From a virus: a stretch of DNA of 64,000 nucleotides. A program made the position numbers and the translations under genes. The notes under the pieces were generated by a model. It saw nothing but the letters and a program-made list of their open reading frames with translations. It did no database searches and was not told the DNA's origin. The stretch covers positions 32,001-96,000 of the IMG/VR virus record IMGVR_UViG_3300046168_000070. The stretch is one strand, 5' to 3'. Below, in pieces: positions 26,796-61,420 of this stretch; position 1 is the first letter of the stretch; each line of letters starts with the position of its first letter.

Positions 26796-29066
26796 ATGAA
26801 AATTTTAATCTTATTGTTTTTATCTTCAATTCTCTGTTTTGGGGATACGCTATATTTTAATAACGGAAAAAATTTGAAAGGCGATATTGTAGAGGCGAAT
26901 GCTACACATGCGTTAATTAAAAGATCAAGTGATCTGCAATTATTCAGGATTTCAATTGATTCTTTAACAAAAGACAACCAAGCTTATATTAAAAATAATT
27001 TTCCACCGAGTCATGAAGCTTTGCCTAAATTTAAAAGACCATTATCTGATAGAGATTTAAAAACTCATGCTTATTATATTGATAGCTTAATTGAAGCAAA
27101 ACTCAGAGGGTATAATCTTAGGCCAAATAAGGAGGTCGATGATGCTATATATTTACGTAGAGCATATCTTAAAATTATCGGGAGGACGCCTTCTTTAGCA
27201 GAAGTAAACTCTTTTTTTGATGATAAAGATAAAAATAAAAGATCAAAATTAGTTGATCAGTTATTAGGTAGTGAAGGATATGTAAGTCACTGGTTTAATT
27301 TTTGGGCGGATATATTAAGAATTAAAGATAGGTTAACCAATAGAATATCTGGAGTGCCTTATAAGAATTATGTAAAAGAGTTTATATCAAATAACAGACC
27401 ATACGATGAATGGGTTAGAGAAATGTTATCCTCATCAGGCTCTCTATGGATTAAAGGCAACGAAGGAGTAAGTTATTTTGCTCGTGATGTCAATATGCCT
27501 CTTGATAGCATGGCTAACACAGTACGTATTTTTTTAGGCACAAGCCTCGAGTGCGCCCAATGCCATGACCATCCTTTTGATCGTTGGACTCAAAAACAAT
27601 TTTACGAAATGGCTGCATTCACAAGTGGCTCGACTAATTTGAGAACAAAAAGTCCAGAAAATTTAAGCGTCTTAAATAGATTAGCGAGAGATGAAAGAAG
27701 AAAATTAGAGCAGTCCGATCAACCTCAAAAATCTAGACAGCTACAAAATAGCATAAGAGATATCCAAGATATTTTGCAAACTGGATTAACGAGTTTAGGT
27801 AACGGAAAGATCAGTTTGCCTAAAGATTATCAGTATGATAATGCAAAACCTAATGAAGCTTTACTAGGGAAAACGATTTTCGGTAAAGAGGTAGATATTA
27901 AAACTGTTGCTCCAAATGCAGGTTCTAGGGAAATTTATGCTAATTGGTTGGCGTCTGAATCAAATCCAAGATTTACAGCTGTTATTGTAAATCGCTTGTG
28001 GAAGGAAGTTTTTGGATTAGCTTTAATAGAGCCAATTGATAATATGTTCGATGACACTCTTGCTACCGACCCAAAATTGCAATTACATCTCGAAAAAGTC
28101 ATGGTTGCCTTAAATTATGATTTAAGAGAGTTTTTAAGAATATTGTATAACACTAAAACATTCCAAAAAGAGTCTGTAACCAGAGATGTAATACCTAAGG
28201 ATAATAAAGATCAATCTATGCCTGTAGAAGTTGAGTGGATTATCGCAGGGCCAAATACCAAAGCTCAGTCTAAAGGAGCTGTCCCTTATTTTTATCAAGG
28301 GCCGATATTAGAAAGAATGAGTGGGGAGCAAATTTGGGATTCTTTAGTAAATTTAACATTTGATAATATAGATTCTAGAAAATTAGAGCAAAATACAAAA
28401 GGTTACGATCAATTTCAAACTCTTTCAGCCATGAGTGGAGAAGAATTATTTGAAGATATAATGGCTAAAATCAATAAAACCGAAAAGCCTAAAGCTGCAA
28501 GTAAATCAAAATTTGGTGAGCCGATAAATACTGATTGCCCTATCAAGCCTGGAAGAGCAATCGACCCAACATTATTAGCTCTCAATGAGAACGGTGAAAC
28601 TTTGGCATTTTGCTGTGAATCTTGTGTTGATAAATACAAATCTCAAAAGAAAGCTAGAGAGCAAGAGTACAAGCAGAATTTTGTCAAAGATAGAAATTCA
28701 GTTAGAGCTTCCGAACTATCTTCTCCCGCTCCGATTGGTCATTTAATCAGAGAGTTTGGCGGCTCAGATAGAGAGCAGATCGAAAACGCAAACAAAAGCG
28801 CTTCAGCGACACAAGTATTAAATTTATTAAATGGGTTCGTTGAAACAAGGTTATTGAAAAATAAAAACTTTGAAGTTATTAAAGCAATTGAATCTCAAAA
28901 GTCGTTAAGTGATAAAATAACAGTAGGTTATAAATATATATTAAACCGAGAGCCTACTTCTAAAGAATTAAGGATATTTACTGATAATTTAAAAAATACG
29001 AAAGATGCATATAAAGAAATAATATGGGTATTAATTAATAGTCATGAATTTATGTTTGTTAGGTAA
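26796..29066 (+). CDS. Secreted DUF1549/DUF1553 (PSD1/PSCyt2-type) protein with SHD1-like N-domain and YHS-like insert
   Basis: Signal peptide; YLRRAYLKIIGRTPS, W.D.LR, FLGTSLECAQCHDHPFDRWTQKQFYEMAAF, NPRFTAVIVNRLWKEVFG..L.EP.D, Q.L.LLNG, WVLINSHEF. Confidence 0.9.
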   Translation: MKILILLFLSSILCFGDTLYFNNGKNLKGDIVEANATHALIKRSSDLQLFRISIDSLTKDNQAYIKNNFPPSHEALPKFKRPLSDRDLKTHAYYIDSLIEAKLRGYNLRPNKEVDDAIYLRRAYLKIIGRTPSLAEVNSFFDDKDKNKRSKLVDQLLGSEGYVSHWFNFWADILRIKDRLTNRISGVPYKNYVKEFISNNRPYDEWVREMLSSSGSLWIKGNEGVSYFARDVNMPLDSMANTVRIFLGTSLECAQCHDHPFDRWTQKQFYEMAAFTSGSTNLRTKSPENLSVLNRLARDERRKLEQSDQPQKSRQLQNSIRDIQDILQTGLTSLGNGKISLPKDYQYDNAKPNEALLGKTIFGKEVDIKTVAPNAGSREIYANWLASESNPRFTAVIVNRLWKEVFGLALIEPIDNMFDDTLATDPKLQLHLEKVMVALNYDLREFLRILYNTKTFQKESVTRDVIPKDNKDQSMPVEVEWIIAGPNTKAQSKGAVPYFYQGPILERMSGEQIWDSLVNLTFDNIDSRKLEQNTKGYDQFQTLSAMSGEELFEDIMAKINKTEKPKAASKSKFGEPINTDCPIKPGRAIDPTLLALNENGETLAFCCESCVDKYKSQKKAREQEYKQNFVKDRNSVRASELSSPAPIGHLIREFGGSDREQIENANKSASATQVLNLLNGFVETRLLKNKNFEVIKAIESQKSLSDKITVGYKYILNREPTSKELRIFTDNLKNTKDAYKEIIWVLINSHEFMFVR

Positions 29067-29428
29067 TCCCATCTATTATATTTAAAAAAATAAATCATAT
29101 CATCTTTTATATAAATCCAACCCCATTTCTCTGTATAAAAATACCCTTTATAGCTTGGAGCATTATATATCCATCCTAATTTTTCAGAATACAACCAACT
29201 TCTAGAAATAGATTTTTTGTAAGTTCCATAAACTCTCCCCAAAGTTTTCATTGTGAACCACAAGCCTTTCGGTTTTTTACCGCATCTTGCCATCCATTCG
29301 CCAAGATCTAACGGTTGAGTAGATTTAGCTTGATTTTTGCACCAATCGCAATTATCTAGAAAATCTTTTCTTTCCACCCTTGCTTCTAGACAAATATATA
29401 TTAATATAAAAAGAAGCGAAAACCTCAT
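29042..29428 (-). CDS. Small putative secreted protein with W.Y....GW.Y repeats
   Basis: Hydrophobic N-terminus, WLYSEKLGWIY / YFYTEKWGWIY; preceded by GTGTAA-N8-ATG. Confidence 0.6.
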   Translation of the reverse strand: MRFSLLFILIYICLEARVERKDFLDNCDWCKNQAKSTQPLDLGEWMARCGKKPKGLWFTMKTLGRVYGTYKKSISRSWLYSEKLGWIYNAPSYKGYFYTEKWGWIYIKDDMIYFFKYNRWDYLTNINS

Positions 29429-31381: not shown

Positions 31382-32019
31382 TGAATCAAATTAAATATAA
31401 ACTTGATCTATATAGCAAGTATTTTTTTAATTTAAATTCAAACCTATCTATTGAAGAAAATTTATTTATTAGTAAATGTATTTCAAATATAGATGAAAAA
31501 GATATTTTCATAAATGAGCATATCTCTGCGTATACCTTTTGTCCATCAGTTGATAACTCAGGATTAATTAATTATGGAAGATTTGCTTTTGGTAAAAAGA
31601 CTAAAAATAAATACTTCTACAACTTAGTCGAGCAGCTGTTCAACTTCTTAAATATAAATATTCATAATTCAAAAGTTAATTTTTTTTATTATGGAGTAGG
31701 TTGGGATTATTTAAATCATTTAATAAAGTTTTATCAATTAAGCTCAGATTATCGCAATATTTACTGCGAAGAGTTTTTGGTAGATCGCGCGAACTTCAAA
31801 AATAACTATATGGTAAAATCTAAAGAATATTCCGTAGGGATCGACAACACAATCATGAACAAAGATGACGCAAATGTTAATCAAATTAACTTAAATAATA
31901 ATTCTAAAGTCTTTGATAATTCTTATGCTAATGATTTGTGTGACAAAATGAAATCTTTAGATTTTTTGTTAGACACTTATAGTATATACAATAATAAAAC
32001 TACTTTATATTTTGACTAA
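31381..32019 (+). CDS. Hypothetical protein
   Basis: TAATG-coupled ORF, no motif recognised. Confidence 0.6.
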   Translation: MNQIKYKLDLYSKYFFNLNSNLSIEENLFISKCISNIDEKDIFINEHISAYTFCPSVDNSGLINYGRFAFGKKTKNKYFYNLVEQLFNFLNINIHNSKVNFFYYGVGWDYLNHLIKFYQLSSDYRNIYCEEFLVDRANFKNNYMVKSKEYSVGIDNTIMNKDDANVNQINLNNNSKVFDNSYANDLCDKMKSLDFLLDTYSIYNNKTTLYFD

Positions 32020-60186: not shown

Positions 60187-60668
60187 TATAGCATAACAAT
60201 CAAACAAGGAGGAAAAAATTATGGGTAATATAGCTAAATGTGCAAGAGCAACTTCAATTATGAATAATGTAAAAAGAGGGGCATATGTGGGCATGAGTAA
60301 ATTTGCCAACTATGGTTCTATTGTCGAGGATAGCATCTTCGCCCAACAAAGAGAGGCAGACAGGCGACTCAAAGAGATTCAAGCCAAGCGTCTCAAGCAA
60401 GCAAAGGGGGTAGCATAATGGATGCAACAATCAAACCTCTTAGTGATAAAGTTAGTATGTTCGCAACTGATGAAGAATTATATGAACAATTAACTGCAAA
60501 AGAATTAATGTTAATTAAATTAGTTAAGGTAGAAGAATATGTAGATGATCTATATAGAGCACATGATTCTGATACAAATAAAAAATTATTTCCGCCTGAG
60601 AAGAGTTGGTTTAAAATAAAAGACTTATTAAGAGAGTGCAGAAAAATTAATAAAAATAAAATTAATAC

Positions 60669-60697
60669 TTGACAAATAAGACTAAATATACTATAAT
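60669..60697 (+). promoter_or_regulatory. sigma70 promoter driving the ncRNA candidate
   Basis: TTGACA-17-TATAAT, no ATG following. Confidence 0.9.
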
Positions 60698-60703
60698 TAT
60701 ATA

Positions 60704-61036
60704 CATAAATTGAGAAACAAACTCAAATAAATAAAATAAATCGATCTTTAAAATTTTTAACACTTTGGAAGGGCTTATAATCCTTCCTGTGGGTGACTGA
60801 ACAAGCTTGTCGTGAGCGAGCTAAAGTATGCAGATCCCTGTGGTGGGGATGACAGAGTCCAATCGGATGAGTCAAATGGCAAATACCACGCCTAGTCTGT
60901 AGTTCAAAGTAGGAAACTCGAAACTGAAAGTTTACGCCGAAACGATGGAGGTATCTCAGAACCCTCCCCCACACATATTTCCCCATCCCCCGCCCCTGCC
61001 CCTTCTAGAGAAATTCTAGGAGGGGCTTTTTGTTTT
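60704..61036 (+). ncRNA. Unidentified ~330 nt structured non-coding RNA
   Basis: Consensus promoter 60669-60697, no plus-strand ORF, many hairpins, long-range TGTGGG/CCCACA helix, loop-loop pairing, terminator 60998-61036. Confidence 0.75.
60998..61036 (+). terminator. Intrinsic terminator
   Basis: GCCCCTTCTAG/CTAGGAGGGGC 11-bp stem followed by TTTTTGTTTT. Confidence 0.9.
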
Positions 61037-61062
61037 GACATTCCCAAAAAACCTGCCATACT
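61035..61062 (+). promoter_or_regulatory. sigma70 promoter (leaderless)
   Basis: TTGACA-16-CATACT, ATG +7. Confidence 0.75.
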
Positions 61063-61069
61063 TATTATT

Positions 61070-61324
61070 ATGAAAACATTAAAAGACATATTATCAAACT
61101 ACGGATACATCACGAAACCTCAGCTTGCCGAGATCGTAGATTATTTCCCGCACATGAAGGTCGTCATTAAATGGGGCGGACTGCCCCGTGAACGGGTTCA
61201 TGCCTGGGAGGCAATCCAACGCATCGATAAAGTAGAGAGCGAGGATATTGACTACTGCCGAGAAGTTTTTCTCTGTGGCAAAGATTGCGAGAATCTTAGA
61301 ATAGCACTACATATAGCAAATTAA
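61070..61324 (+). CDS. Hypothetical protein
   Basis: ATG 7 nt after a -10 box. Confidence 0.6.
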   Translation: MKTLKDILSNYGYITKPQLAEIVDYFPHMKVVIKWGGLPRERVHAWEAIQRIDKVESEDIDYCREVFLCGKDCENLRIALHIAN

Positions 61325-61420
61325 GTGGAAATTATTCTAGGAGCACTAGTCATCACAATTTGTCTCGTTTTTAAACAAGATTAAATTCTTTATTCAATTC
61401 AATCATATCATATAATGACA

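Follow-up and report, generated by a model that had tools for sequence, protein, structure and literature searches.

The manA locus and its transcription unit

The DNA analysed here is a stretch of 64,000 nucleotides (nt), hereafter the window, which covers positions 32,001 to 96,000 of the IMG/VR virus record IMGVR_UViG_3300046168_000070. On its + strand, at 60669-61036, a consensus promoter, an untranslated leader, a structured RNA core of the manA family (Rfam RF01745) and an intrinsic terminator follow one another, and a conserved open reading frame (ORF) of 84 amino acids (aa) with its own promoter comes next. A sequence-only reading made earlier by a model had recognised a dedicated transcription unit for a structured RNA at this site, and promoter, leader and terminator were indeed found together in 26 distinct loci. 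The same reading had taken the RNA to be unidentified and to represent a new class of non-coding RNA; a full-length match to RF01745 was obtained instead, which is the outcome it had itself named as refuting novelty. The RNA is not a new class: a known family had been correctly observed, and the added value is contextual.

The whole window was scanned against Rfam 15, and RF01745 was the only match above threshold. The manA core occupies 60767-60977 (+ strand, 211 nt) and matches the covariance model with 79.3 bits (gathering score 55.2; E 1.5e-18), over model positions 1-192 of 192 and not truncated. No other Rfam family was detected in the window, even at E up to 1, and neither ARAGORN nor Rfam revealed tRNA, transfer-messenger RNA (tmRNA) or tRNA-like elements there, in line with the known-RNA signatures that the sequence-only reading had found lacking. 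According to a whole-genome Rfam search, it is the sole manA copy in the 193,844-bp virus record. The manA RNA was described in 2010 as a riboswitch candidate that commonly lies in potential 5' untranslated regions (UTRs), and its representatives originated from marine metagenomes, T4-like cyanophages and two gamma-proteobacteria (Weinberg et al., 2010; PMC2864571).

Relatives were collected in three ways. With the downstream 84-aa ORF as query, 27 loci were found (59-99% identity). Upstream DNA sufficed in 26 of them, and each of these carries a manA match of 61-93 bits, whose end lies about 95-160 nt upstream of the ORF. Five further loci came from a DNA pattern specific to the subfamily, and a core-pattern scan of IMG/VR yielded 120 loci of the common cyanophage type, of which those scanned with Rfam score 169-192 bits. 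Because of this difference in score, the window copy is placed in a divergent manA subfamily. Four stretches of bacterial genomes that matched the subfamily pattern had been considered as a clue to the host; these were not manA by Rfam and were discarded as chance matches.

The unit begins with a sigma-70-type early promoter, TTGACA-17-TATAAT, at 60669-60697 (+ strand), which matches the consensus at 12 of 12 positions, as had been noticed from the sequence alone. Perfect TTGACA-N17-TATAAT sites occur six times in the window, all on the + strand (10580, 30771, 32027, 38672, 59381 and 60669), compared with 0.07 expected from shuffles, and they are a real feature of this phage genome. Transcription would start near 60704, as judged from the promoter sequence. 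No + strand ORF of at least 30 aa was found between 60673 and 61069, in agreement with the earlier statement. Among the relatives, a promoter matching at least 10 of the 12 positions lies upstream of manA in 26/26 loci, and its -10 element ends 66-73 nt before manA in 18 of them, whereas the remaining loci carry a hairpin-forming insert of 50-150 nt between the leader and P1. The 333-nt RNA from about 60704 to 61036 has a predicted folding energy of -90.2 kcal/mol (z = -2.7 vs shuffles), and its centroid structure contains the leader hairpin, P1 and the terminator.

The intrinsic terminator spans 60998-61036 (+ strand). Its hairpin (60998-61026) comprises 13 pairs including G-U, seven of them G-C, with a 3-nt loop, and is followed by TTTTTGTTTT; this strong terminator had been noticed from the sequence alone, as one of 11 bp. 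RNAfold gives this hairpin -20.9 kcal/mol. It is separated from manA by a C-rich spacer (60978-60997, + strand), of which neither sequence nor length is conserved. In all 26 distinct loci a hairpin of -10.6 to -26.1 kcal/mol abuts a T-run, which begins 28-195 nt (mostly 48-70 nt) past manA, and the stem sequences vary by locus, for instance GCCCCUUCUAGAG, GCCCACCCAAG, CCUACUCAAGG and CCCGAUCAAGG. Judged by these alignments, the hairpin is conserved but not its sequence. The terminator is intact in the minimum free energy (MFE) structure of the whole RNA in 26/26 loci, and likewise when the 5' 150 nt are omitted. No competing antiterminator is therefore predicted, and the folding suggests a constitutive terminator and an RNA product of about 330 nt.

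Structure and covariation of the manA core

The core contains the helices expected of the family. P1 (GGAAGG/CCTTCC, 60767-72/60782-87, + strand), one of the hairpins that the sequence-only reading had listed, pairs in 96.6% of cells of the subfamily alignment, and four of its six pairs have changed on both sides. The long-range closing helix, which had also been anticipated, is present as GUGGG/CCCAC (60789-93/60968-72, + strand); it is invariant, so it carries no covariation information. Further helices found are GCUUGU/GCGAGC, UCC-AAUC-GGA, GGC/GCC and GGAGG/CCUCC. The stem of the last, terminal hairpin (60947-51/60963-67) pairs in 100% of cells, with three of five pairs double-changed. A proposed ATCCC/GGGAT stem overlaps the CCU/GGG hairpin of Rfam, although in a slightly different register, and the supposed GAAA tetraloops did not hold: the setting of the GAAA strings is either a pentaloop (UGAAA) or the conserved, single-stranded CGCCGAAA. 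The second hairpin is flanked by the junction nucleotides GUGACUGAA(Y)AA ... UAA(R)GU, in agreement with the consensus line of Rfam. Among the 26 subfamily sequences GUGAC and UAA.GUA are invariant, as are many unpaired nucleotides.

The structure was assessed on a MAFFT alignment of these 26 sequences, with the Rfam structure transferred from the window row. Standard pairs occupy 91.7% of cells. In controls with the 3' partners shifted by 1-3 columns, the figure is 40-54%. Both partners have changed in 22 of the 50 pairs (controls 2-10), and the covariation score reaches 0.32 (controls 0.07-0.13). More weight is given to the double changes, because a structure taken from one alignment row somewhat favours the paired percentage.

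Complementary loops and their relation to manA assemblies

Two pairs of hairpin loops in the core are complementary to each other. The loop GUGGUG (60840-60845, + strand) is mapped to L5 and the loop AUACCAC (60883-60889, + strand) to L7; they are the first and third loops of a three-hairpin domain, and GUGGU (60840-44) is complementary to ACCAC (60885-89), as the sequence-only reading had pointed out. These GUGGUG and ACCA loops were drawn as a pseudoknot by Weinberg et al. (2010; PMC2864571). The second pair joins the hairpin AAAC-UGAAA-GUUU (60921-60933, + strand), mapped to P8/L8, and the loop UAUCUCAGAAC of the GGAGG/CCUCC hairpin (60952-60962, + strand), mapped to L9: CUGA at 60924-27 complements the UCAG held in this last loop. 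L5, L7, L8 and L9 were assigned by counting hairpins along the Rfam consensus, not from the figures of the preprint discussed below, and the assignment of L5 is based on hairpin order together with the GNRA (GAAA) loop at the L6 position of that consensus.

Both complements are retained among the relatives. A UGG/CCA core of L5/L7 is kept in nearly all 26 sequences, and U-A is replaced by C-G (GUGGC/GCCA) in loci L123 and L126. Since these loops are too invariant, they are unsuited to a permutation test. L8 and L9 are complementary in all 26 subfamily sequences with a minimum of four Watson-Crick pairs, and they covary: ACUG(A)/(U)CAGU is found in most, ACUAAA/UUUAGU in L131 and L133, and CUGA/UCAG in the window. 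Cyanophage-type copies show the variants CUGUA/UACAG vs AUGUA/UACAU. In each of 2000 permutation trials the loops' own L8/L9 pairs beat the permuted ones, for the subfamily as well as for 103 cyanophage-type copies, a result that shared ancestry inflates. The complements were scored as per-sequence complement runs; column-wise pair counts for the loops and the L8 hairpin are unreliable, because loop lengths shift the register of the MAFFT alignment.

Recently, RNA-only structures of five manA members were determined by cryo-electron microscopy (cryo-EM), as described in a 2026 preprint by Ren et al. (10.64898/2026.07.01.735769). One member assembles into a T=1 icosahedral cage of 60 subunits with a diameter of about 430 Å; decamers are reported for three others, and both octamers and decamers for one. 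According to the same text, all assemblies contain a pentamer held by intermolecular kissing loops. One group uses the contacts L5-L7' and L8-L9' (L8-L9' in manA_A0F1), the other group L5-L7', L3-L8' and a GNRA (L6)-receptor contact, so that the L5-L7' kissing loop occurs in both. The members are said there to share a core and to differ in peripheral helices, and the authors still call manA "putative cis-regulatory". It is very likely that GUGGU/ACCAC in the window RNA is one contact that holds manA oligomers together. The extended AAUC hairpin at the L6 position here fits the peripheral variation reported in the preprint; at least one interface of one solved variant is missing, because this position is not GNRA.

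The leader and its boxA-like element

The leader from the putative start to P1 measures 62 nt and is conserved, with two elements common to both leader types. The first is the hairpin UUGAG-AAACAAA-CUCAA at 60710-60726 (+ strand; stem 60710-14/60722-26), which had been noticed from the sequence alone and is present in both the MFE and the centroid fold; it occupies the position of boxB in an rRNA operon (rrn) leader. A regular expression matched it in 24 of the 26 loci, with a CUGAG variant in L135 and no such hairpin in L156, and a compensatory change to UUAAG/CUUAA is shared by L144, L146 and L148 (counted as one change). The stem is kept while the loop varies by leader type (AAACAAA vs AAGGAUAAA).

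The second element is a boxA-like sequence, CGAUCUUUAAAAU, at 60742-60754 (+ strand), assigned by its position in the untranslated leader and by its conservation: YG(A/U)UCUUU(A/U)A follows 14-19 nt 3' of the leader hairpin in 26/26 loci. In most relatives the element reads UGAUCUUUAACAUUUUA, with 15/17 identity to the boxA-spacer of Escherichia coli rrn, for which the reference sequence ugcucuuuaacaauuua was taken from Table 1 of PMC2724277. The window copy agrees with 7/9 of the core of the E. coli consensus, which may not be that of the host. In rRNA leaders, NusB/NusE bind boxA and render RNA polymerase resistant to Rho (PMC3177189, PMC4807359). That the leader is an rrn-type antitermination leader with boxA function is plausible, though unproven, by this analogy; the case is built on position and conservation, because the short motif alone is not rare in this AT-rich genome. 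A second leader hairpin, AUCAA...UUGAU, is formed in many relatives; it is unpaired in the window copy, so it is not claimed.

Differing hairpin-forming inserts of 50-150 nt were observed in L122, L138/L139, L135, L156, L162, L167, L140, L143 and L125. They share one point, between the boxA-like leader and P1, just 5' of CACTTTGG, and L122, whose neighbouring ORF is 99% identical to that of the window, shares an insert of about 60 nt with L138/L139. Additional RNA modules or small mobile hairpins may have a hot spot of insertion here.

The downstream gene

Directly at the end of the RNA gene, and outside it, lies the next gene's separate promoter, TTGACA-16-CATACT (61035-61062, + strand; 10/12; TG upstream of the -10 element), which marks the boundary of the unit. 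In the alignment, TTGAC directly after the T-run is invariant in 23/23 ORF-linked loci, and a promoter was scored there in 19 loci; among relatives it has a 16-17-nt spacer, a CATACT-type -10 element and often an upstream TG. Its -10 element ends 6-7 nt before the ATG (61070 in the window) in most loci, so the 84-aa ORF apparently has a leaderless start under its own promoter.

In almost all related loci this conserved ORF (61070-61324, + strand) comes next after the manA unit. Among the new loci found through the RNA, three of four have it; L156 keeps promoter, manA and terminator without it. Its invariant motifs are VVIKWGG.PR.R and DYCREVF, with invariant K, W and R residues. The AlphaFold2 model is confident (pLDDT 93.4). 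No Pfam or PHROG family was assigned to the protein, a Foldseek search against the PDB gave nothing at E <=0.001, the best Z in VIA-align was 4.3, and in the ESM Atlas only its own viral cluster was retrieved (0.76).

The phage and the cyanophage-type copies

The genome has 34% G+C and encodes rIIA/rIIB-like proteins, a lambda-J-like tail fibre and minor tail proteins, with ORFs of up to 2,949 aa. Its terminase is 23-25% identical to those of the nearest isolates, which are large Firmicute phages, and searches with rIIA and TerL found distant relatives only (23-27% identity). No isolate phage was matched by blastn with 60400-61400 or by tblastn with the 84-aa ORF. Searches of the phage's own genome for psbA (PF00124) and gp23 (PF07068) gave no match, the latter a weak negative since control genomes gave none either. 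On the basis of these searches and of the terminase, about 24% identical to the nearest isolates, the phage is not regarded as a T4-like cyanophage. Related contigs reach 194-214 kb, and by these sequence comparisons it belongs to an uncultured clade of about 190-215 kb with no close isolate.

The genome contains no tRNA gene and one tmRNA gene, at 29003-29400 of the record (L171:504-901), about 2.6-3.0 kb before window position 1 (ARAGORN; RF00023, 130 bits). ARAGORN gives its tag as ANNYMATKTVLKLLA. A boxA-like AGTTCTTTGAAAA, also given as AGUUCUUUGAAAA, lies about 10 nt upstream of this gene.

Of 101 cyanophage-type copies, 43 are preceded by a near-consensus promoter, and its -10 element ends mostly 5-6 nt before manA nucleotide 1; the rate at control positions is 2.3%. 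In five loci (L006, L038, L055, L071 and L095) tRNA-Asn begins 2-13 nt 3' of manA, and cleavage by RNase P would then define the manA 3' end. In 16 of 103 loci (L015, L017, L019, L030, L051, L056, L058, L062, L064, L068, L083, L091, L098, L104, L110 and L113) a conserved, terminator-like two-tier hairpin, AGACCUAAGAUGCAACUC...GAGUSGGGCAGAUGGUCU, with a U-run directly follows manA; the three scanned (L015, L030 and L051) gave no Rfam match at gathering score. In the raw alignment of Weinberg et al., some members likewise have a predicted terminator and tRNAs on their flanks (PMC2864571).

Function of the RNA unit

We consider it probable, without being certain, that the locus is a free-standing RNA gene of the manA family with its own promoter, leader and terminator, and that its core probably self-assembles. 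The separate promoters, the intact terminators with their locus-specific stems and locus L156 speak against the terminator as a riboswitch expression platform and favour a stand-alone RNA gene, and the adjacent promoters, tRNA-Asn genes and terminator-like hairpins of cyanophage-type copies lean towards the same view. Host RNA polymerase would initiate at the consensus promoter near 60704, and the 62-nt leader would probably load Nus factors, so that the untranslated RNA would escape Rho, by analogy with rRNA leaders. The polymerase would then transcribe the 211-nt manA core and halt at the constitutive intrinsic terminator to release an RNA of about 330 nt. The core would adopt the conserved multi-helix manA structure and, by homology with the cryo-EM manA RNAs, would most likely join its own copies into pentamer-based closed oligomers, in which the loop-loop pairs GUGGU/ACCAC and CUGA/UCAG would be the contacts. 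Family membership, the layout of the unit, the independent promoter of the next gene and the retention and covariation of the loop complements are direct observations; the start site, the loading of Nus factors, the assembly of the window RNA into oligomers and a part in infection are inferred.

Several points weigh against this interpretation. The loops could pair within one molecule, in the form of the pseudoknots drawn by Weinberg et al., and intra- and intermolecular pairing are indistinguishable by sequence. The mapping to L5, L7, L8 and L9 is deduced from hairpin order, and at the L6 position the window RNA has an AAUC loop on an extended hairpin in place of GNRA. The assemblies described in the preprint were formed only in vitro and by other members, at millimolar Mg2+ and high RNA concentration (10.64898/2026.07.01.735769). 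The boxA-like 10-mer, with 12 occurrences against about 10 expected, is not statistically rare in a genome as AT-rich as this. The linkage between manA and the 84-aa ORF is tight and would fit a cis or partner relationship. Finally, an ORF starts within 40 nt of manA in 56 of 104 cyanophage-type copies, and the 5'-UTR picture is not wrong for all manA members.

Of the competing explanations, a trans-acting monomer survives best, although we hold it to be fairly unlikely. Such an RNA would be a sponge or decoy that binds and titrates a protein of the host or the phage, perhaps within a small ribonucleoprotein with the 84-aa protein, and the oligomers would form in vitro only. The stand-alone early unit, the many invariant unpaired nucleotides in the 26 sequences and the constant synteny with an ORF that has invariant K, W and R all suit it. 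Nevertheless, that ORF has no recognisable RNA-binding fold or family, the cyanophage-type manA copies lack a constant protein neighbour, and covarying loop complements are better explained by RNA-RNA contacts. A bolder version of the self-assembling RNA gene, in which all manA RNAs are structural RNAs of phages and not riboswitches, and an early, Nus-protected transcript accumulates in infected cells to build RNA-only cages or decamers that enclose or scaffold something, with the 84-aa protein as cargo or partner, appears unlikely.

A riboswitch or other cis-acting leader, in which a ligand or factor bound to the manA core gates read-through into the 84-aa ORF and beyond, is distinctly unlikely at this locus; this judgement applies to the functional label and leaves membership of the RNA family untouched. 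It can draw on the original proposal of manA as a riboswitch candidate, commonly in 5' UTRs (PMC2864571), and on the cis-regulatory class given by Rfam; the closely spaced ORFs of the cyanophage type mentioned above, the constant pairing of manA with the 84-aa ORF (26/26 loci plus three of the four RNA-first loci) and the order of aptamer and terminator, which is the usual layout of a transcriptional riboswitch, point the same way. However, no alternative pairing between core and terminator was found, with the terminator kept in the MFE fold in 26/26 loci with and without the 5' part. The manA 3' strand does not vary, whereas the terminator stems bear no sequence relation to one another, and the spacer ranges from 6 to more than 160 nt. 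The ORF has a conserved promoter of its own, is apparently leaderless and lacks a Shine-Dalgarno sequence that would serve read-through transcripts; L156 has no such ORF, and some family members precede tRNA genes. No manA ligand has been reported in 16 years, and the solved manA structures are homo-oligomers (10.64898/2026.07.01.735769).

The idea that the locus encodes a minus-strand protein and that the RNA structure is incidental is effectively refuted, since the 87-aa ORF at 60723-60986 does exist but indels among the relatives break the frame (2 nt in the P1 loop; single-base gaps at alignment columns 34 and 39), the longest open frame varies by locus from 55 to 127 codons, the stem substitutions are compensatory, and the full-length Rfam match is on the plus strand.

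For 16 years manA has been an orphan riboswitch candidate, and the preprint reports its RNA-only cages in vitro without a biological context; this locus and its 26 relatives provide such context for one lineage. A gene of its own, with a consensus early promoter, an rRNA-like leader, a constitutive terminator and retained loops, favours a structural or trans-acting RNA over a switch. The findings also extend the manA family beyond T4-like cyanophages, and they delimit a compact, well-bounded RNA construct (60704-61036 or 60767-60977).

Comparison with known systems

The window RNA resembles manA RF01745 in its 5' hairpin, long-range closing helix and junction GUGACUGAA...UAAAGU, in the three-hairpin domain with GUGGUG and ACCA loops, in the terminal GGAGG/CCUCC hairpin and the L8/L9 complement, and in its phage origin and early-promoter context. 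It differs in the extended L6 hairpin, which has a UCC-AAUC-GGA tip instead of a GAAA tetraloop, and in the 7-bp helix at model positions of about 135-160, which is cut to two pairs here. The subfamily has the 62-nt leader with hairpin and boxA-like element, whereas the promoter-adjacent cyanophage copies (43/101) start at nucleotide 1, and subfamily manA is always followed by a strong terminator on its 3' side. In addition, manA was described in T4-like cyanophages and the present phage falls outside that group.

The likeness to an rrn leader consists in the succession of promoter, hairpin, boxA-like UGAUCUUUAACAUUUUA (15/17, in the relatives) and a long untranslated structured RNA. The window copy, CGAUCUUUAAAAU, is weaker, with 7/9 of the core, when measured against an E. 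coli reference that may not be that of the host.

The sequence-only reading had likened the RNA to GOLLD and ROOL. The comparison is apt in kind, as these are phage-associated, self-assembling RNAs, but there is no match to either family. Neither in sequence nor in structure did ROOL, GOLLD or OLE match the window, with E values of up to 1 allowed, and the window RNA is much smaller, with a core of 211 nt. ROOL, GOLLD and OLE are alike in kind in that they are structured RNAs, often of phages or prophages, for which no ligand is known, and that they are transcribed separately and assembled into symmetric homo-oligomers through loop-loop contacts (10.1101/2024.12.08.627333). Unlike ROOL, GOLLD and OLE, the manA assemblies use a pentameric block, according to the preprint (10.64898/2026.07.01.735769).

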